A model generated the notes under the pieces. The model searched no databases and was not told the DNA's origin. It saw nothing but the letters and a program-made list of their open reading frames with translations. A DNA stretch of 63,874 bases, the filler included, from Reclinomonas americana ATCC 50394 (taxonomy: Eukaryota): the NCBI GenBank assembly GCA_048213135.1. It is 12 parts of 12 records of this genome, joined end to end, with 100 filler letters (N's around TTAATTAATTAA, not from the genome) between each part and the next. Parts side by side here need not be neighbours in the genome. Positions count along the whole stretch, not along the records: positions 35,308 to 38,482 come from AFZH01018802.1; 11 more parts are not named here. One strand, written 5' to 3'. Shown one piece after another: positions 11,367 to 46,141 of this stretch (the first letter of the stretch is position 1; the number at the start of each line of letters is the position of its first letter). Made by a program: the position numbers and the translations under genes.

Positions 11367-11466
11367 NNNNNNNNNNNNNNNNNNNNNNNNNNNNNNNNNN
11401 NNNNNNNNNNTTAATTAATTAANNNNNNNNNNNNNNNNNNNNNNNNNNNNNNNNNNNNNNNNNNNN
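11367..11466. other. Assembly spacer N44-TTAATTAATTAA-N44. Identical spacers start at 20348, 23554, 27677, 35208, 38483, 43105, 50746, 57509, 61183 and 62713
   Basis: Eleven identical 100-bp blocks carrying a six-frame stop linker, mostly flanked by microsatellites. Confidence 0.98.
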
Positions 11467-20300: not shown

Positions 20301-20809
20301 GGAACGACACAGCAAGGGAGAGGGGAGAGAAGGGGGAGAAGAGAGACNNNNNNNNNNNNNNNNNNNNNNNNNNNNNNNNNNNNNNNNNNNNTTAATTAAT
20401 TAANNNNNNNNNNNNNNNNNNNNNNNNNNNNNNNNNNNNNNNNNNNNAGAGAGAGAGAGAGAGAGAGAGAAAATGCGGAAGAAGAGAGGCACGATTGATC
20501 ACGTGCAAGAAAAGAGAAAGACGCAGAAATGAAGGAGATAAGACAAAGAAGGAGAGGAGCTAAGAGGGGGAGAAGGGGGAGATGAGAAGTTGTGTGTGCG
20601 TGAGAAGAGAAGAAGCGAGCACGGAAGAAGACAAGCAAGTTTGATCCCTTGTAAGAAACAGAGAGACAGATAGAAGAAGGTCGACAACAGAGGAGTGGAG
20701 CAAGAGGAGGGAGAATGAGAGAGACGAGAGGTTGTGAGAGAGAGTGTGAGAGAGAGAGAAGCAGTGAGAGCGGAAGGGAATTGCGAGGCAATTGTATCCC
20801 TTGTTCGAG

Positions 20810-22749: not shown

Positions 22750-32645
<9,896 letters not shown>

Positions 32646-32868: not shown

Positions 32869-34100
32869 ATGGCGTGTCTGCGCGCATGCTGGCGCTTGTG
32901 GCAATCCGTCGAGCGGAAACTCTTCTCTGCTTTCGTCGCCGCCATCTACTCTGCCTACACGCTCTGCATTCTTCTGTACTCGGCACTCTCGGCAGTGGCG
33001 GACAGCAACGATTTCAACGCCGCCTCATGCAAGGTTTCTTCACCCACACACTCACATACTCACGACCCTCTCTGTCTCTGGGCATCGCTCACTGTCGATC
33101 GCCAGGATCCCTTCTGTGAGACTGACCACGGCAAGTTCGGCGACTTGTGGTGCGTACACAGTTCAGATGATGATCGACATTGATTTCACGCCAGCATTCA
33201 TCCGACCGTGCCCCTCTCCTGCAGCTGTGGCTACACGGCGCTCTCCGATCCTTCAGGCTTCAGCGTCGTGTTCTTTGTGATCTACATTGTCGCCTTCACC
33301 GACATTGCCTTGCGCCTCATTGTCATGTTCTTTATCTTTGTCTGCTGGTGCGATGGTGCAATGTACCAGCGGGCGCTCTTCTTGACGCGCCACCCGTGGT
33401 ACCTGGTGAGTGGACGACTACATGTGAGACCAGTCCGTGTGCGTTCTCTCATCGCCGTACACTGTGCCGTGCATGCAGATCACCTCGGCTGTGTTGCACG
33501 CCGCCATCATGGCATACTCGGCGGCCTTCTTGCACTACATCCACCAAGGCGAAAATGCCACGTACTTTATCGTCAATAGCTACGCCACTGTGTGGGCGAG
33601 CAACGACCAGTGCCTCAGTGCCTTCCAGACGGCGACTGGCTGTGCTGTTGCCTACCGGTACTGGAACAACAAAGTCGTTGCGTGCGACGATCACTCTCTC
33701 TCTTTCTCTTTCTCTCCCTCTCTCCCCTGTGAGACATGCAGTGACCTCTTTGTCGTGCGCCGCTCAGTTGGTGCTGACCAAGTACGTCGGCCTCGTGACG
33801 GTTCTCTGGAACCTTTTCATGCTGGTGATAGAGCTGTGGGATATCCTGGAGCGCTGCGCATTCAAGCGCGATCATTCCTACCCGGTGTTCTGCAGTTGTT
33901 GGCCGCACGAGCACGGCGACACCGACAACCTCGTCATGTACATTCCTGTCAAGGGCGGTGTGCTGGATGTGGTAATCATTCCCGATCCGCGGGTGCGGGA
34001 TGAGCAGGAACTCGGAGAGCGGCCTCCACAGCCGGTGCAGCAGGAGGCGCCGCGGCCTCCGCAGCCGGTGCAGCAGGAGGCGCCGCGACCGAGGATTTAA
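32869..34100 (+). CDS. Four-TM membrane protein with Cys-containing loops and a Pro/Gln-repeat C-terminal tail (5 exons)
   Basis: Hydrophobic helices LFSAFVAAIYSAYTLCILLYSAL, FSVVFFVIYIVAFTDIALRLIVMFFIFV, ITSAVLHAAIMAYSAAFLHYI and YVGLVTVLWNLFMLVIELW. The tail has RPPQPVQQEAP twice. Confidence 0.75.
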
Positions 34101-35344
34101 TGAATGGTAATTGTTAACTGGCAGAAGGGCAAGGGAGAGGGAGGGGGAGAAGGGGGAGAAGGAGAAGGAGATGGAGGAGGAAGGGATGAGAAAAAGGAGG
34201 GAGGAGGCGAGGAATGAGAGAGAAGGAGAAGGAGAGTGGGCGAAACAAGGAGGTGGGAGAGAAGAGAAATGGTTGGACGGAGTGGGGGAGAAGAGATCGA
34301 GTCTCCAATCGTGAGAAGCGATATGGGAGGAGGACGAGAGGTCGAGGGAGTTGGAGTGAATTGGGGAGAGATCGAGGCAAGGATCGTGAGAGAGGACGGA
34401 GAAGAGGGGGAAAGAGAAGGGAACAGAGGAGAGAGAGACGCATTATGGAGTGAGAGGAAAGGTTGGACGAAGTCAGGGAGAGATCGAAGCACGGATTGTA
34501 GAAAGGAGGAAGACCTGGGAAAGAGAACGGAGAGATGAATGGCTTTGGAGTGAGAGGGTAGGGACAAGAGGAAATGGTTGGCCGAAGTGAGTGAGGAGAG
34601 ATCCAGACAAGGATCGTGAAAGACATGATCATGAAGATCAATGGAGAAAGAGAAGGGAGAGATGACGGGCTCTGGAGTGAGCTCGAGAGGATGGGGGCAA
34701 GATGGAGGAGAAAGGAAAGAGGAGGCGAGGACAAAGCGAACTACGGATATTACGAGACAGCGGGTGAGCGCATGCGGTAAATATTCAGGGAGACGAGGGA
34801 GAGGAGAATGAGAGGTGGGAGGGTTGATCGAAAAGAGAGAAGCGAGGAGAAACGAGGCACTGCATGGAGAACACCCAGCCACACCCTTGTCGACGGTCAC
34901 TCGACTGCACCTCTGCTCCGGATCCTTGTCTCTATTCCTGCTTGGAATTCGGCATGACATCCACTTGTCACGAGCCGTGGTTCTGTTGCAGAAACGCAAT
35001 AGAAGGTCAGCTCTTCGCACACTCCCCCTTTGCCATCAGTCTCTCTCTCAGCTCTCTGACGCACACAAGCGCATACCCCCCCTCCAGCAACACAGCTGCA
35101 AGATGAACCATCTTGCTGGTTCCAGAACTGAGACATCACGCACGCAGAACGAGAAAAGTCGAGATGGCTGCTGATGTATCTCCCTCCCTCTCTCCCTCTC
35201 TCTCTCTNNNNNNNNNNNNNNNNNNNNNNNNNNNNNNNNNNNNNNNNNNNNTTAATTAATTAANNNNNNNNNNNNNNNNNNNNNNNNNNNNNNNNNNNNN
35301 NNNNNNNTCTTTGCTCTTACTCACCCGCCCGCCAAACCTACCAG

Positions 35345-36864
35345 TCATTTCGCGGCCGCTCGCCACCCGGCGCCACCTCGTGCACGAACTTTGTGCAGAG
35401 TCCGATTGGTTGGATTGCACCTGTATTCTTTGGGTTGACGGCCATTGAGCACCTCATGTATGCCACCTGGTTGCGGGAGGAGTACCGTCACGGCTTGGTG
35501 CGCTTCCAGAACAAGTACCGCTGGTTGTTCTACGCCGTGTCCGCCGGCATGATGAGCATTCTGGTCATGCAGATCGCGGCAGAGGTGCAGTGTAGAGGAA
35601 ACGGTCTTTTTTCCTGCCTTGCATTCGTTCACTCATTGCGACGCAGTTGAGCATCGGAGGCGCCATTCTCAGCCTGGTGCTCACGGCCGGTGTGATGCTG
35701 GACGGGTTGGTGTTTGAGCAGCAGAATGCGGCGGCCATGGCCTACAGCGCCACCATGCCGGAGCTGATTGGCAGCAACGATGCGCGCACGCAGGTCAACT
35801 GGTGGGCCGTGCACAGTGCCTGGCTCAAGACCGTCGGCTACTGGACGGTGGTGTGGTGGTCGGCCATTAGCAATGGACCGGAGATTCCCAAGTTTGTGTG
35901 GGCGCTCATCTCGGTTACGTTTTTGTCGTGGTCGTCGTTTGGTGAGTGCGGAGGGGATGAAGGGGAAAGGGAGGAAAGGGGGGAAGGGGAAGGGGGAATG
36001 GGAGGAAGAGGAGAGGAGAGGAGAGGAGAGGAGAGGAGAGGAGAGGAGAGGAGAGGAGAGGAGAGGAGAGGAGAGGAGAGGAGAGGGAGGAGAGGAGAGG
36101 GTGAGGAAGAGGGTGAGGAAGAGGGTGAGGAAGAGGAAGAGGGAGAGGAAGAGGGGAGAGAGGAGAGGAAGAGGAAGAGGAGAGGAGAGGAGAGGAGAGG
36201 AGAGGAGAGGAGAGGAGAGGAGAGGAGAGGAGAGGGGAGAGAGAGGAGAGAGGGAGGAGAGGAGAGGGAAGGAGCAGGAGAGGGAAGGAGCAGGAGAGGA
36301 GAGGAGAGGGGAGGAGAGGAGAGGGGGGAGAGGAGCAAGAGCAAGAACAGGAGAGGAGAGAGGAGGGGAGGGGAGAGGAGAGGAGAAGAGAAGAGGGAGA
36401 AGAGGAGAGGAGAGGAGAGGGGGGAGAGGGAGAGAAGGAGAAGAAGAAGAAGAAGAAGAAGAAGTGGAGGAGGAGGAGAAGGGGAAGGAAGACGAAGGAG
36501 GAGGAGGAGAGAGTGAGTGAGGAGAAACAGGAGAATAAGACAGAAGAGATGAGAAGGGAAGGGAAGCGAAAGGGAGACAAGAGTCATGGGAAGGAGAGCA
36601 GAGACAAGAAGGGAAGAGAAGAGAAGAAGAACGCACCTCGTTCATCGCTCATCTCATTCCCCCTCCTTCTCCTCTCTCCCTTCCCTCCACTCCCTCTCCC
36701 TCTTCCCTCCTCCAGGCTTTGTTCCCATCGGCACCCACCTGCGCCGCCGCCTCGGCGCCAAGGCATACCTCGAGGGCGAAATGACCTACATCATTCTCAG
36801 CTTCGTCGCCAAGACGCTGCTCGGGTGGATCTATCTCGGCGCCTCCAACAATGGAGGGAACTGA
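35345..36864 (+). CDS. Heliorhodopsin (TM2-TM7 present; TM1 not found, probably in the gap); exons 35345-35584, 35647-35941, 36716-36864
   Basis: PIGWIAPVFFGLTAIEH (TM2), Y...QNKYRWLFYAVSAGMM (TM3), GLVFEQ (TM4), IPKFVWALI..SSFG (TM6) and YLEGEMTYIILSFVAKTLLGWIYLG (TM7, SxxxK with the retinal Lys at 36811-36813). Intron phases (0, 1) join in frame. Confidence 0.93.
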
Positions 36865-37820
36865 TTCAGAGAGAGATAGAGAGGGAGTATAAATGCATGA
36901 AGGGAAGGATATGTGACAACTTGCAAAGGAGTCCGAGGTCAGCGTAAAGTGAGAACAACAACAGTCTGCAGAGCCTGCTGCGCAAGAATGGATGTTTTGG
37001 ATATGGTTGGACTTGGACATCAAGACATCTGCTGCTTGGAACGCGATTTTGTTTTGTGAAACATTGAACACTTCGAGTGTCCTCAGCACCCACAGGACCC
37101 GCCATTGTCCACATACCCGAACCATGGAGGTGCGGCAGTCTCCCTCCTTCTCCCCTTTCATCTCTCTATGCCTCACAGCTGTCACGCACTCACACTCTCC
37201 CTGCTCGTCATCAATGTGTAATGTTTGTCTACTTTTGTTAAGGTTACACAGACTACCCCTCTAACCGCTCTCACTGCGCCCATTGACCCCGTGCCGATTG
37301 CCATTGCGCCCGTCGAGCAGCCCTTGTACACTGTGATTGCCGTGTCGGTGCGCGCGCTCCCCCCATCTTCTTTGCCATGTCGGCCACATATTGACTCACT
37401 CTCTTTCTCTCTGTGTGTGCGTAGCGCCCGGTGGACTCGCTCCAGTTCTGGCTCTGAAGAGAGACACAGAAGAGAGTGCACACCTCGTACGACGTGTGTA
37501 CGCCGTCGTCACAATAAGCAAATGAAATTGTGTGAATGACACAAAAAGTCGCGCTCGAGGCAGCTCATGATACAGTCGACGCGCATGCTCTACGACGCGT
37601 GGCACGCACAGATGCGATGGGGAGAGCGTGAGATGGCCATCACAAGATGACCACTGCAAAAAACACAGAGCGACTTCTCACCGTCTCTCTGCACTGTGCG
37701 CTGTCACCCTCTGCATTCTAATGAACACACAACACAGCGACACTGAGGACCTCGATTGGATTTCCGGGACAGACAAATCCGTTGCGTCGATCGTTGGATT
37801 TTGTGTGCGTCGTGCGAGAG

Positions 37821-40800
37821 ATGTCGGATGAGTACTCTGACGAGGCGTCGGAGTCGCCGTTGCCGCAGCCGATGAGTCTGCGAAGGCGAAGGGACTATGA
37901 TGATGAGGAGGACGATGATGATTATCTGAGGGAAGAGGAGGAGGAGGAGGAGGAGGAGCGAGAGAGGGAGAGGGAGGAAGGAAGTGTGCGTCGGGAGCAC
38001 GTGGATGAGTTGGCGAGGAGGTCGCAAGGTTTGTGGGGGGAGGAGGAGAGGAAGGGGAGGAGAAGGGGATCAAAAAAAAAACACTTTGAGTTAACGAGCA
38101 AAACACACTCCCCCTTCGCTATCAAATGTCTCACCGCTCTCTCTCCTTCCACTGCAAGTGCCTCTCCGCTCACACTGGCTTCGTGAACTCTGTCTCTTTA
38201 CACCACAGGACGCTTCTCTTCCCCTTCTCTTCACCCTTCTTCTTCCCCCTTCCTCTTCCCTTCGTCTTCCCTTCGTCTTCCCCCTTCGTCTTCCCCTTCC
38301 GTCTTCCCCTTCGTCTTCCCCCTTCGTCTTCCCCTTCCGTCTTCCCCTTCGTCTTCCCCCTTCTCCTTTCCCCTTCGTCTTCCCCTTCTCCTTCCCCCTT
38401 CTCCTTCCCCCTTCTCTCCCCTTCGTCTTCCCCCTTCTCTTCCCCCTTCTCTTCCCCCTTCCTCTTCTCCCTTCCTCTTCTCNNNNNNNNNNNNNNNNNN
38501 NNNNNNNNNNNNNNNNNNNNNNNNNNTTAATTAATTAANNNNNNNNNNNNNNNNNNNNNNNNNNNNNNNNNNNNNNNNNNNNTATTCCTTCCCCCCTTTT
38601 CCTTCTCCCCTTTTCCTTCCCCCCTTCCTCTCCCCCCTTCCTCTTCCCCTTCCTCTTCCCCCTTCCTCTTCCCCCTTCCTCTTCCCCCTTCCTCTTCCCC
38701 CTTGCTCTTCCCCCTCTTCTCTTCCCCCTTCTCCCTTTCCCTCTCCACCTCCTTGCCTTCACTCCTCTCACTTTCCCTTGCCTTCTTCTCCCCTCTCCAC
38801 GCAGAGCTGCTTCTCTTGCGACCCGTGCTGGAGGAACGAGGCCTTCTGGCCCACGTGGAAGAGGAACTGGCGGCCTGCTCACGTGAGTAAGCATTGTCTT
38901 TGAAAGAGGCAAGTGGCGACTTGCGACTGATCGCTCGTACGCAGAGCTCGGTCACGCCGTGGCACAGTCGTGGATAAACTCAAACATAGAGGTGCGATGG
39001 CGTCACAGTTTTTGCAGCTAACCAAAGCTCACTGTCATCTCTCGTGTGGCGCAGGTGGAACGCCTGACACAGGAACTCACTCAGTTCAAGTCGCTGCTGT
39101 TGGAGGCGCAATCTGTACTTCATGGAGCTCGGGAGAACCTGGAACACACGAACGTGGAGTTGCAGCTGGAGAGGCAGAAACACAAGGAATTGCGTGAGGT
39201 ACGTTCCGTCACTCGCATTGGAGAGGGGGGGAGTGAGACGGTAGTGAGTATTTGTAATCTCTGCCTGTGTCAACACATGCGTCTCTCTCACTCTCACCGT
39301 GGCGACATCTTCTGTGATTGGAGAAGAAGATTTAGACTTGTCTTCGTGACTTTCTTCTGCCCATCACACATGACTACCTCTCACCGTCTCTGTAGCGAGA
39401 TTAATGAGTGATCTGAGAGGAAGAGGAAGTCTCCGTGATTTTCGTCCATCGTTCCCTCTTTCTCTCTCTCTCTCGCTTCTTCGAGGCGATTGGCGAGGAG
39501 CATATGTTCTGCGACCCTCTCTACCCTTCTATTATTGTCTCAGTCGCCTCAAGGACTGTCTCCCTCTCCCGCGAGATAAATGAGTGATTTGAGAGGACGA
39601 GTGTTCAATGATTTTCTGTCGCCAATCTGTCTGTATTACACGACTCTGGCTGTTGCGCCTCCACCTTCCTCCTTTACCCACTGGCTCCACAGAAGTATTC
39701 CTCATTTCTCTTATTCACCACCCATCATTCTGCTCTCCTCGCTGACTTGCTACCATGTCAAATCTCGTGTATTGTTCTCAGTTTCGCTCCTTCTCCTTCC
39801 TTTTATCTTTCTGTGCTATGCACACTTTGCTCATTCGTCTGCTATTTGACTTCTCCCTTCTCTCCTTCTCTCCCTTCTCCCCCTTCTCCCCCTTCTGCCC
39901 TTCTCCCCCTGTTCCCTTCGCCCCTCTCTTCCCTTCTCCCCCTTCCCCTTCCTCCCTCGCACTCTTTCTGAGTGGTTGGACAGGAATAGGGAGGGTGCAG
40001 CAAGTCTTCCTCACATTCTATCTGTTTCACCGCATGTCTCTGTCTTACTCTCACCTTGCCGATGCTGTTTAACTTGAGCGAGTCTTTGCAATTCCTTCTA
40101 CCTGTCTCTCTTTCCTGCCTTCTTTGTCCTCTTTGTGTCATTCTCCACAGCTTCTTCTCACCCCCTCCATTTCCCTTTGCCAATGCAGTCCTCCATGAGA
40201 CGCGAGATGCAACACAACCGCATGGCCACCGAACTCGAGGACCTGCAAAAAAACTACGAAGAGGCAGTGGGCACGAGGAGGCGGCTCGAAAGTCGACTCG
40301 TGGGCCTGGAGCGCGACAACAAGGAAACGTCGTCGGCATTCACCAAGGTCCTCTCCCCTTTCCTTGTTGATCATCACCTGCTCTCCTTGTCTCTCACCTG
40401 CGCGCGCACTCACAGGCAATCTGGGAGCGCGACACACTTCAGAAACAAGTGACCGCACTGCAGTTGCAACTGCGACAGGCGCAGTTGCAGGCCGAGTCCG
40501 CATTGGATCGTAAGAACAGTTCTGTTTGCGACACTGTGGCGGCACGCATACTCGTCGATCTTCTCGTGCTGATTCGTGTTCTCATGCAGAGACGATTGAC
40601 CAGCTGAAAGAGAATCTGGAGGAGGCTTCATCGCCAACGGCGGCCACACCGCGTTCGATGGGTGCGAATGCGCGCATTGTGCTGGACGAGAACGTGCGAC
40701 TGCATCGCAAGGTGAGGCAATGATTTGTGGATTCGCACAAGCAACGAGTGCTCATTCCTCATTGACTCCCCTTCGCCCACTAGGTGCAAGATCTGGAGGC

Positions 40801-43103: not shown

Positions 43104-43591
43104 ANNNNNNNNNNNNNNNNNNNNNNNNNNNNNNNNNNNNNNNNNNNNTTAATTAATTAANNNNNNNNNNNNNNNNNNNNNNNNNNNNNNNNNNNNNNNN
43201 NNNNTCGGCCGGCATCCGGGACTGGACAGCTTGCTGCTGTCGAGTGCGGAGGACGAGCAAATAGGCAGTACGTTGTCGGTGGTGTTGCAGGTGGCCGGCG
43301 TCAATGATGGGATGCTGGCGCCGGGCAGGTCGTGAGGGGTAGTGAATGTGTGGACTGAATGAGGCGGGGGTGTGGGTGGGAGTAAGGGGCTGTCGGCCGT
43401 GACACACGAGTGCGTCGGCTGGTCGCTCTGGGTGGCGACAAAGGCAGGGATACGAACCTGAGCTCAGATTGTAGTTGTGAAGAAGTCTGGCAGTGTACGT
43501 GCTCCCTTCTGGCGCCAAGGCCACCTGCTCACAGCGCAACGTAGCGTCCGTGTCCTGCACGGAAAAATACTTTCGTTACACGCTGATCACC

Positions 43592-44677
43592 ATGTCTCTC
43601 GCTCCTTCTCGCCCTTCTCTCTTCCCTTTCAAGTGCCTCGCAGGGCACACTGCTGCGGTGATGTGTGTCGCCGTCACACCCGATGGTCGGCACATTATCA
43701 GCTCTGACACGTCTCTGCGTGTTTGGTCGCTGGCGAGTGGCGAGGAAGTGCGACGATTGGAGGGACACACAGAGATAGTGTACTCCGTTGCCGTCGCTCC
43801 TGACGGGAAGCACATCGTGAGCAGCAGTCGCGACTCGGTCATTGTGTGGTCGCTGGAGATGAGTGGAGAAGAAGTGCGACGATTGGAGGGACACGCTGGT
43901 TGGGCGTGGTCCGTTGCCTTCACCCCCGACGGTCAACACGTTGTAAGTGGAGGCAGTGATAACACTGTGCGAGTGTGGTCACTGGCAAGTGGAGAAGAGG
44001 TGCGACGCTTGGAGGGGCACACTGAATGGGTGAGATCAGTTGCCGTCACTCCCAACGGCCAGCATATTGTGAGTGGCAGCAGTGATCACACCGTGCGAGT
44101 GTGGTCACTTGTGACTGGCGAGGAGGTACGACGGCTGGAGCGACGCAACGCAGAGGTGCTGACGGTTGTTGTCACTCCCGACAGTGAGTACATTCTGAGT
44201 GGAGGAGGTGACGGAATTGTGCGAGTGTGGTCACTGGCGAGCGGCGAGGAGGTGAAAGGATACAACGAATGGGCGACATCACTCACCATCACCCCCGATG
44301 GGCGGCATGTTGTGAGTGCGAGTTGTGACGGCTTAGCGCGAGTGTCGTCACTGGCGAGTGGAGAAGAAGTGTGGCGGATGGAGGAGCACACCGGTGAGGT
44401 GTGGTGTGTGGCTGTCGCCGTCACTCCCGATGGTCAACACGTTGTGGCCGGCGGAGAGGACAAGGCCGTGCGCGTGTGGTCTACTTCGTGCGGCCTCGCG
44501 CGCTGCGAGGTTGACCTTGCGCGTTCTGCGATGGAGGCCGTGCAGGAGATGCAGAGGGTTGCCTTTGGTGAAGGTGACTCTCGGTGCCTGCCAGAGATGG
44601 TACTGCGCTGCTTCATTGTCGAGGAGGCCGAGGCCATCGTGTATCGCCGAAGAGTCGACCCTGAGTCGCATTTGTGA
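43592..44677 (+). CDS. Intronless WD40-repeat protein (7 repeats) with conserved C-terminal helical tail, array copy 1
   Basis: MSLAPSRPSLF start; repeats GHxxxVxSVAVTPDGxHxVSGxxDxTVRVWSLASGEEVRRLE; tail RCLPEMVLRCFIVEEAEAIVYRRRVDPESHL. Confidence 0.92.
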   Translation: MSLAPSRPSLFPFKCLAGHTAAVMCVAVTPDGRHIISSDTSLRVWSLASGEEVRRLEGHTEIVYSVAVAPDGKHIVSSSRDSVIVWSLEMSGEEVRRLEGHAGWAWSVAFTPDGQHVVSGGSDNTVRVWSLASGEEVRRLEGHTEWVRSVAVTPNGQHIVSGSSDHTVRVWSLVTGEEVRRLERRNAEVLTVVVTPDSEYILSGGGDGIVRVWSLASGEEVKGYNEWATSLTITPDGRHVVSASCDGLARVSSLASGEEVWRMEEHTGEVWCVAVAVTPDGQHVVAGGEDKAVRVWSTSCGLARCEVDLARSAMEAVQEMQRVAFGEGDSRCLPEMVLRCFIVEEAEAIVYRRRVDPESHL

Positions 44678-44845
44678 ATCTTTTCCCGTGGTGATTTGTC
44701 AAGTAAAATGCAGTTGTGATGGAGTTTTGCAGTGTGCATGTTTTCTTCTCACAGCTTGCGAGCTCGGTGTTTTGCGCAACGAAGACACGCCTGCTCACAG
44801 CGTCGACACAAGGCGTCCGCGTCCTGCAATAAGCATCTTTCCACC

Positions 44846-45940
44846 ATGTCTCTCGCTCCTTCTCGCCCTTCTCTCTTCCCTTTCCAATGCATTCGTGGGC
44901 ACCCCGCTACGGTGAAATCTGTCGCCGTCACTCCCGATGGCCGACACATCGTGAGTGGCAGTCACGATGAGACTGTGCGCATGTGGTCACTGGCAAGTGG
45001 CGAGGAAGTGCGACGCTTTGAGGGGCACGTGGGGATCGTGTACTCCGTTGCCATCTCTCCCGATGGTCAGCATGTCGTCAGTGGGAGTGCGGACAAGACT
45101 GTGCGTGTGTGGTCACTGGCAAGCGGAGAAGAGGTGCGACGATTGGAGGGACACGCTGGATGGGTGAGAACTGTCGCTGTCACTCCCGATGGCCAGTTTG
45201 TGGTGAGTGGAAGCAACGATCGCACCGTGCGCGTGTGGTCGCTTGAGAGCGGGCGAGAGGTGCGGCGCTTGGAGGGACACACTGATAGAATTAGATCAGT
45301 CGCCGTCACTCCCAATGGCAAGTTCATTGTGAGTGGCGGCAATGATTGCACTGTACGAGTGTGGTCTTCCGTGAATGGAGAGGAGGTGCGACGGTTTGCG
45401 GGCCTCACCGCCGAGGTGCTGACGGTTGTTGTTGCTCCCGACGGCCATCACGTTTTAAGCGGTGGCGTCGATGGAACAGTGCAATTATGGTCACTGGCGA
45501 GCGGCGAGGAGGTGCGGCGGCTGGGGGAATACGGCGAATGGGTGACAGCACTTGCCGTCACCCCCGACGAGCGGCACGTTGTGAGCGGCAGCGATGACAG
45601 AGCAATACGAGTGTGTTCACTGGCGAGCGGACAAGAAGTGGTACGGATGGAGGGGCACTCTGGCAGGGTTTGGTGTGTCAGTGTCACTCCTGACGGTCAA
45701 CATGTTGTCAGCGGCGGCGAAGACAAGACCGTGCAAGTGTGGTCCACTCCGTGCGGTCTCGCGCGAGAAGAGCTCCACGCAGCGCAAGCGGCGATGTTCG
45801 CTGTGCAGGAGATGGAGCAGCTGGCCTTTGATGAAGGTGACTCTCGGTGCCTTCCAGAGATAGTGCTGCGCTGCTTCATTGTCGAGGAGGCCGAGGCCAT
45901 CGTTTATCGGTACAGCGTGGACCCCGACATGCATTTATGA
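44846..45940 (+). CDS. Intronless WD40-repeat protein, array copy 2
   Basis: Same architecture as copy 1; ends VDPDMHL. Confidence 0.92.
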   Translation: MSLAPSRPSLFPFQCIRGHPATVKSVAVTPDGRHIVSGSHDETVRMWSLASGEEVRRFEGHVGIVYSVAISPDGQHVVSGSADKTVRVWSLASGEEVRRLEGHAGWVRTVAVTPDGQFVVSGSNDRTVRVWSLESGREVRRLEGHTDRIRSVAVTPNGKFIVSGGNDCTVRVWSSVNGEEVRRFAGLTAEVLTVVVAPDGHHVLSGGVDGTVQLWSLASGEEVRRLGEYGEWVTALAVTPDERHVVSGSDDRAIRVCSLASGQEVVRMEGHSGRVWCVSVTPDGQHVVSGGEDKTVQVWSTPCGLAREELHAAQAAMFAVQEMEQLAFDEGDSRCLPEIVLRCFIVEEAEAIVYRYSVDPDMHL

Positions 45941-46141
45941 TGTGAGTTTCCTGATTCTCTTCTTTGCGTTCTCCCTCGTGGATTGTCAAGTAAAAATTGC
46001 AGCTGTGATATTCTGGCCGCGTGTATGTTCTCTACTGGTAGCACGCTGAACACGTTTGCTCACAGCGTCGCATAGACTATGCGTCAGTGTCCTGCATGAA
46101 AAAGCGCACTTCTCGTTGCACGCACGCACACTCCGTTCACC

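Follow-up and report, generated by a model that had tools for sequence, protein, structure and literature searches.

A heliorhodopsin lineage represented in Reclinomonas americana lacks the transmembrane helix 3 carboxylate and carries a glutamate in transmembrane helix 2 as a candidate surrogate counterion

The window analysed here, a stretch of 63,874 nucleotides (nt) of DNA from Reclinomonas americana ATCC 50394 (assembly GCA_048213135.1), carries a heliorhodopsin (HeR) gene on its plus strand at positions 35345–36864. The gene lies on a contig piece of 3.2 kb (35308–38482; AFZH01018802.1) and consists of three exons joined by GT–AG splicing. To our knowledge, Glu107 serves as the sole counterion in all heliorhodopsins investigated to date and is the residue to which the Schiff-base proton first passes. 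In the protein encoded in the window, Phe is found at the position of Glu107 in transmembrane helix (TM) 3, and Glu occupies position 79 in TM2, a pair that recurs in two distant relatives. We describe the locus, the relatives that share this pair and the part of the protein in which residue 79 is likely to lie, and we weigh the possibility that Glu79 serves as a tethered replacement for the lost counterion.

The features of the locus are collected in Table 1. Upstream of exon 1 a pyrimidine-rich tract closes in CAG, so that the acceptor reads CAG/TCA at 35344/35345, and the other splice boundaries are GAG/GTGCAG at 35584/35585, GCAG/TTG at 35646/35647, TTTG/GTGAGT at 35941/35942 and CCAG/GC before exon 3. 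The spliced three-exon product is open over 227 amino acids (aa). Matched exon by exon to a HeR profile from which the window had been excluded, it gives E-values of 1.4e-28, 5.3e-11 and 2e-07 in colinear order, the exons covering profile positions 53–135, 138–223 and up to 264; across the intron 1 junction, the profile positions run on from 135 to 138. Exon 1 (52.9 bits, E=4.1e-14) and exon 3 (31.3 bits, E=1.7e-07) both exceed the 26.7-bit cut-off of the Pfam family PF18761, while exon 2 alone scores 12.9 bits, under that cut-off, and finds no match when used as the sole query against PDB chains. A phmmer search of PDB chains aligns exon 1 to residues 48–123 of the heliorhodopsin 48C12 (E=3.5e-08), and exon 3 aligns to 48C12 residues 225–248 and to TaHeR residues 222–251. 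The gene is truncated at its 5' end: TM1, with the residues equivalent to H23 and N16, lies beyond the contig edge, which is only 37 nt away from the 5' end of exon 1. When the HeR profile was run over all six frames of the window for TM1 or paralogues, only the three exons were recovered, the next match having E=0.22. A sequence-only reading of the window had proposed a eukaryotic heliorhodopsin at this place. The first part of that proposal is borne out by the PF18761 matches above the cut-off, the colinear profile match over three exons and the PDB alignments, and the second by two internal GT–AG introns together with the acceptor at 35344/35345. The introns are direct evidence of eukaryotic origin.

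Table 1. Coordinates of the heliorhodopsin gene and of the assembly linkers in the window.
Feature	Position	Strand	Remarks
Assembly linker	35208..35307	.	N44 + TTAATTAATTAA + N44; contig boundary just 5' of the HeR piece
Exon 1	35345..35584	+	End of the A–B loop, TM2, TM3; 80 codons; donor GT at 35585
Glu codon GAG, aligned with Phe79 of 48C12	35447..35449	+	Directly precedes His80 (CAC 35450-52)
Phe codon TTC, aligned with Glu107 of 48C12	35528..35530	+	Flanked by R104 (CGC 35519-21), W105 and Y108
Intron 1	35585..35646	+	62 nt, GT...AG; unspliced frame stops at 35648-50
Exon 2	35647..35941	+	TM4, TM5, start of TM6; ends in phase 1; E149, W173, P192, W at the F206 position
Intron 2	35942..36715	+	774 nt, GTGAGT...CAG; mostly (GAGGA)n microsatellite at 36002-36434
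Exon 3	36716..36864	+	End of TM6, TM7; E230 (GAA 36778-80), S237 (AGC 36799-801), K241 (AAG 36811-13); TGA at 36862-64
Linkers	11367-11466, 20348-20447, 23554-23653, 27677-27776, 35208-35307, 38483-38582, 43105-43204, 50746-50845, 57509-57608, 61183-61282, 62713-62812		

Residues are numbered here after 48C12, for which the PDB chain 6su3_X was used as reference, since its chain index agrees with the published numbering (H80, E107). In TM3 the window reads R-W-L-F-Y against R104-W105-V106-E107-Y108 of 48C12, and in TM2 it reads T-A-I-E-H against S76-A77-L78-F79-H80. The end of exon 3 places ...LSFVAK on residues 236–241, an SxxxK motif with the retinal Lys and with Ser at the position of D212 in bacteriorhodopsin; the same arrangement is found in P0004, one of the two relatives introduced below. 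The window keeps R104, W105, Y108, S111, H80, E230, S237 and K241. The TM3 counterion signature RWxEY is broken precisely at its acid, which is Phe in the window and in P0004 and Trp in P0003, the other relative. The two histidines of the cavity can be followed in part: H80 is present in the window, with the H23 region outside it, and P0004 has His at both positions as well as an additional His at the N16 position. On these points the sequence-only reading, which had named a GAG and a TTC codon, Phe for Glu107 and Glu for Phe79 between intact flanking motifs, and a TM7 motif SFVAK retaining the retinal Lys, proved accurate: both codons are in frame in the sequence and its translation, the phmmer alignment to 48C12 reproduces the two substitutions and their flanks, and the Lys aligns with those of 48C12 and TaHeR.

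Relatives were sought with phmmer among 1.84 billion cluster representatives, searched exhaustively with the 80-residue exon 1 as the only query. Of the 47 hits, P0020 is spurious, being a protein of repetitive sequence, and is excluded from all counts. The two best hits, P0004 and P0003, carry the same pair as the window, and 44 other HeR representatives remain. P0004 is a full-length protein of 273 aa with ...V-E-H in TM2 and R-W-I-F-Y in TM3 (E79/F107). P0003 is a fragment of 157 aa, the ends of which resemble read-through and which is unreliable beyond about residue 150; it has ...L-E-H and R-W-W-W-F (E79/W107). Pairwise identity among the window protein, P0003 and P0004 is 38–44%. At position 107, the 44 other representatives have Glu in 41 cases, Asp in 2 and Val in 1. 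At position 79 they have Asp (19), Ala (14), Phe (5), Thr (3) and Val, Gln or Met (1 each), and none has Glu. Glu79 therefore occurs in all three sequences with an aromatic residue at 107 and in none of the 44 others. The sequence-only reading had described the two substitutions as a reciprocal exchange; this description comes from the comparison with 48C12 and does not carry over to the family, in which position 79 is variable and the ancestral residue is more likely to have been Ala or Asp than Phe. Asp79, as in P0006–P0010, is in fact the commonest residue at this cavity-lining site directly before His80, and it is always accompanied by Glu107; we found no discussion of such an extra cavity carboxylate in the literature searched.

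Both codons of interest come from a short contig that terminates inside the gene, and a sequencing error, a misassembly or wrong splicing might be held responsible for them or for the gene model. We find such an origin hardly credible. A change from Glu (GAR) to Phe (TTY) requires three base changes, both codons sit well inside exon 1, at a good distance from any splice site, and the same pair recurs in two database proteins of independent origin (sources ena and lgn). A maximum-likelihood tree was built from 36 rows, comprising the hits of at least 200 aa, P0003 and the window, with 11 shorter hits and P0020 omitted. In this tree the window, P0003 and P0004 form one group, with a support of 99 in the Shimodaira–Hasegawa-like approximate likelihood-ratio test (SH-aLRT), which becomes 99.7 when columns 79 and 107 are left out. 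The count of homologs sharing the variant, a check suggested along with the sequence-only reading, thus yields two proteins grouped with the window at high support, and the pair is not an idiosyncrasy of this genome. The terminal branches of the three members measure 0.71–1.56 substitutions per site; with these long branches and the identities of 38–44%, the pair must be an old one that was retained over a long divergence.

Conservation within the group was compared with that in the 44 other representatives. Among the positions at least 90% conserved in the latter, only 107 differs in all three members. All three retain F72, H80, Y92, N101, R104, W105, S111, M115, G145 and E149. Y108 is found in the window and P0004, with Phe in P0003, and W173, P192, E230, S237 and K241 are kept wherever the sequences extend, that is, in the window and P0004. 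Residues shared by the group and rare elsewhere are I68, P70, E79, S127, V141, W177, S205, W206 and T216, the most frequent residues outside the group being Asp at 127, Phe at 206 and Gln at 216. Tyr83 is likewise common to the group and is also found in 11 of the 44 others, mostly in those with Ala79. This pattern fits selection on a working retinal protein, and decay would not be expected to leave it. The fold points in the same direction. An AlphaFold2 model of P0004, computed from a 49-row alignment, has a predicted local distance difference test score (pLDDT) of 91.1 and a predicted template modelling score (pTM) of 0.87, and shows seven helices and an A–B beta hairpin with strands at 46–53 and 64–72. 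When the model was compared with the PDB by Foldseek, the best 10 matches were all HeRs (E 1.5e-11 to 3.6e-10), these ten having template modelling scores by target of 0.78–0.86, and type-1 rhodopsins appeared only at E 5e-04 or weaker.

These observations bear directly on the notion that the locus encodes a degenerate or repurposed opsin (a pseudogene, a relic or a membrane protein that no longer binds retinal), in which the changes at 79 and 107 have been tolerated rather than selected. The window holds an incomplete gene, each of the three members stands alone in databases of very large size, and some positions of the retinal pocket (W206, T216, V141) depart from the family, all of which would suit such a history. 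Against it, the reading frame is open in every exon and the splice sites are canonical, P0004 is modelled with high confidence, and K241, S237, E230, R104, W105, H80, N101, Y92 and E149 are kept at identities of 38–44%, which would be unexpected without selection. We regard degeneration as very unlikely, and the locus encodes a genuine heliorhodopsin that probably binds retinal and is functional. As judged from the alignments, the protein is a heliorhodopsin by homology, is non-canonical by the Glu107 signature, and represents a real, rare variant. The lineage is small and deeply diverged, with a eukaryote-type gene structure.

Searches for further members point to the same small size. P0003 and P0004 are each a singleton cluster. 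Apart from phmmer, all searches were based on words or exact patterns, by which divergent members can be missed, and the following negatives are to be read in that light. A word-based protein search with exon 1 gave no relatives of longer length. In a word-based search of a set of 5.8 billion protein clusters, the P0004 query returned only itself, and a 5-row profile returned only P0004 and P0003. An alignment-pattern search of JGI metagenome contigs produced 354 pattern matches, none of which was confirmed, and the same kind of search in prokaryotic contigs (one genome per species) produced 73 matches, again with none confirmed. Viral contigs searched with the group alignment, P0004 and P0003 contained no member. 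One metagenome locus (L001), picked up with the P0004 query, was rejected, as its translation proved to be a chance match of 18 residues. The E79/aromatic-107 lineage thus looks rare in the collections searched.

Published structures give an indication of where a side chain at position 79 would point. In the low-pH structure of 48C12, an acetate in the inner cavity is hydrogen-bonded to Glu107, and its methyl group lies 4.3 Å from Phe79 and 3.8 Å from Val83 (PMC10434121). The report of the first eukaryotic HeR structure describes a hydrophilic cavity near the Schiff base formed by residues including F79 in 48C12, A81 in TaHeR and A125 in Cv06 (bioRxiv 10.1101/2025.11.27.691015), and Kovalev et al. 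place F72, S76 and V83 around the Schiff-base region (PMC7049168). By helical periodicity, residue 79 would lie on the same face of TM2 as these three. The sequence-only reading had allowed that the TM2 Glu might face the lipid or the dimer interface; the published 48C12 structures instead put residue 79 in the cavity. According to Besaw et al. (PMC9385722), the cavity is capped by two ion pairs, that of the protonated retinal Schiff base with Glu and that of Arg with Glu, with the histidines neutral. When the counterion is neutralised, whether by low pH or in the mutants E107A/Q and E108A, its role passes to a surrogate, chloride or acetate admitted to the cavity, a behaviour that the same authors predict for most HeRs (PMC9385722). 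His80 and His23 have been proposed to form a proton relay (PMC9726877).

The sequence-only reading had proposed a move of the counterion from TM3 to TM2. The reading that we favour is that Glu79 would act as a built-in, tethered surrogate counterion in place of Glu107. It is structurally reasonable, and we put its chances at about even. In this lineage Glu107 (generic position 3.45) has been exchanged for Phe or Trp and a lineage-unique Glu is found at 79; with the Arg104/Glu230 pair intact and Glu107 gone, Glu79 is the only new charge. In chemical terms, its side chain amounts to an acetate held by a two-carbon tether to a residue in contact with the acetate site. The carboxylate could hold the proton on the Schiff base, probably by way of at least one water and of Ser237, and, together with His80 and His23, it might accept the proton after photoisomerisation. 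The expected product would be a visible pigment that is independent of added anions and red-shifted, because the charge would be further from the Schiff base, with a slow photocycle of the sensory type rather than ion pumping. In its most specific form, the proposal is that a natural HeR lineage has abandoned both canonical counterion positions (3.45 and 7.46) and that Glu79, reaching the cavity anion site from one position before H2.58, holds the Schiff-base proton; we consider this possible, at somewhat less than even chances.

The surrogate anions of the cavity also suggest another account, in which the pigment would be anion-dependent. There would be no protein counterion, chloride or another small anion from solution would occupy the cavity, and Glu79 would be protonated or paired with His80 or His23. 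The lineage would then be likened to 48C12 E107A/Q and TaHeR E108A, exogenous anions being accepted by most HeRs (PMC9385722), and P0040, described below, in which Glu107 has been lost in nature and position 79 carries no acid, adds to its appeal. The neutralised proteins, including the acetate-bearing 6SU4 and the chloride-bearing 7U55, do resemble the variant in an uncharged residue 107 and, on the tethered reading, in a negative charge in the cavity that balances the Schiff base; they differ in that the anion is diffusible and residue 107 is Ala, Gln or protonated Glu, as opposed to a tethered Glu and a bulky aromatic residue. That aromatic residue would fill the space taken by the anion beside the Schiff base in E107A, and Glu79, if deprotonated, would repel an anion sharing its cavity. 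Moreover, the strict pairing of Glu79 with the loss of Glu107 (3/3 against 0/44) would be left unexplained. Anion dependence seems unlikely to us.

A third account starts from a Schiff base with a lowered pKa, unprotonated in a dark state that absorbs in the ultraviolet or violet; such a pigment might be bistable, and Glu79 would influence the pKa only from a distance. Both canonical counterion positions are without a carboxylate (Phe at 3.45, Ser at 7.46), and the viral V2HeR3 lost its visible absorption on mutation of the counterion to E105Q (PMC9448325). On the other hand, counterion mutants of 48C12 and TaHeR stay protonated given any anion in the cavity (PMC9385722), and Glu79 would supply one permanently; E230, R104, H80 and S237 are all kept as well. 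We think an unprotonated dark state quite unlikely.

Several observations count against Glu79 as a tethered counterion. The behaviour of V2HeR3 E105Q is one of them. In 48C12, residue 79 contacts an acetate that lies beyond Glu107 as viewed from the Schiff base, and a static replacement would, by our estimate, probably place the Glu79 carboxylate several angstroms from the Schiff base. An acid at position 79 is not special in itself, since all 19 of the Asp79 proteins also have Glu107. Uncompensated loss of Glu107 does happen, as in P0040, which has Val107 together with Ala79 and Gly237. The co-occurrence of Glu79 with an aromatic residue at 107 is, by the tree, a single evolutionary event and not three independent ones. 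Finally, the window gene is without TM1, and P0003 is a fragment.

Comparison with known systems helps to place the variant. Its likeness to the canonical HeRs (48C12, TaHeR and Cv06 of Chromera velia) is one of homology over all parts present, comprising the RWxxY frame, H80, Y92, N101, S111, E149, E230 and SxxxK, and the model of its relative P0004 shares the fold and the A–B beta hairpin. It differs from them in Phe for Glu107 (Glu or Asp in 43 of the 44 others), in Glu79, in Trp at F206, Thr at Q216 and Ser at D127, and its three-position motif is F-S-L, as compared with E-S-L in typical HeRs. Phe at 3.45 is familiar from the schizorhodopsins, which have an FSE motif and use Asp at 7.46 as the counterion (PMC13739731), so that this residue is compatible with a working pigment if another carboxylate is the counterion. 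The resemblance extends to Arg-Trp, followed by Phe at 3.45, and to Ser at 3.49. Schizorhodopsins, however, have Asp at 7.46 (DxxxK) and Glu at 3.56, whereas the variant has Ser at 7.46, Leu at 3.56, the HeR residue His80 and the A–B hairpin. Membership of that family was rejected on the residues at 3.56 and 7.46 and because the PDB sequence search returned HeR chains in six of six cases; in addition, no schizorhodopsin appeared among the Foldseek matches listed for the P0004 model (ranks 1–50). A proton transporter of the V2HeR3 type was rejected as well: the hallmark Glu at the L202 position of 48C12 is absent, with Thr in the window and P0004, although Trp at 206 is shared by V2HeR3, the window and P0004.

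In animal opsins, the charge of the chromophore is balanced by Glu181 of the second extracellular loop or by Glu113 of TM3. The parallel with the variant is conceptual, concerning a distant, water-linked carboxylate; the families are unrelated, and both opsin sites have been tested experimentally, whereas the variant is known from sequence. A nearer comparison within the HeRs is P0040 (312 aa), an otherwise recognisable heliorhodopsin that has also lost the TM3 carboxylate. It has Val107, Ala79 and Gly in place of Ser237, retains the Lys and has no TM2 acid, and it may represent another counterion-less HeR group. Since it adjoins P0029 elsewhere in the tree, its loss is an independent event; P0029, its neighbour, appears to be without the retinal Lys.

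With respect to the literature, Kovalev et al. list Glu107 among the residues highly conserved in all HeRs (PMC7049168), and according to a 2026 paper on residue numbering, the counterion at 3.45 is preserved in HeRs (PMC13739731). In the literature searched, the Kovalev supplementary figures S19 and S20 on subfamily variations apart, we came across no naturally occurring HeR that lacks a carboxylate in TM3 and no account of this variant. In the supplementary tables of Bulzu et al. (PMC9601134), the strings RWFSL, RWWSL, RWFSM, RWFSI, RWFSV and RWFTL are absent. RWQS, RWVS, RWAS and RWLS occur 0 times each in these tables, RWDS 9 times and RWFS 45 times, the two RWFS entries viewed being schizorhodopsin rows.

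Proton handling inside the closed cavity is the central question on HeR mechanism. The lineage can be regarded as a natural evolutionary experiment, in which Glu107 was removed and a carboxylate was added on the opposite wall of the cavity. It bears on whether a cavity anion is sufficient as a counterion, on how far a counterion can move and on the consequences for colour and photocycle. If Glu79 does hold the Schiff-base proton, this would be the first natural displacement of a counterion to TM2 among heliorhodopsins, and the pigment would likely be red-shifted or otherwise unusual, with a proton acceptor joined directly to the His80/His23 relay. Retinal pigments are usually shifted to the red by distal counterions, which is of practical interest for optical tools.

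The remainder of the window yielded several minor observations. Eleven identical 100-nt linkers (N44 + TTAATTAATTAA + N44) split it into 12 pieces, which need not adjoin in the genome, so that gene context across a linker is meaningless. The microsatellite of intron 2 comprises about 84 copies of its unit, and a 13-nt repeat, CTTCGTCTTCCCC, is present in about 22 copies at 38213–38480, at the end of the HeR contig piece. On neighbouring pieces, GA/CT-rich low-complexity sequence of a similar kind fills open reading frames (ORFs), for example at 34100–34800, a likeness that suggests a common genome of origin for the pieces. Fifteen other long stop-to-stop ORFs in the window (294–517 aa) have no Pfam match at E<=0.001, and many of them are low-complexity translations of GA/CT-rich repeats. 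At 43481–49757 on the plus strand, a single contig piece contains five successive long ORFs of 375–406 aa, each with 5–7 WD40 repeats (PF00400, E 1.8e-65 to 2.6e-77), which may be either a tandem array of separate genes for WD40 beta-propellers or a single giant gene encoding several propellers.

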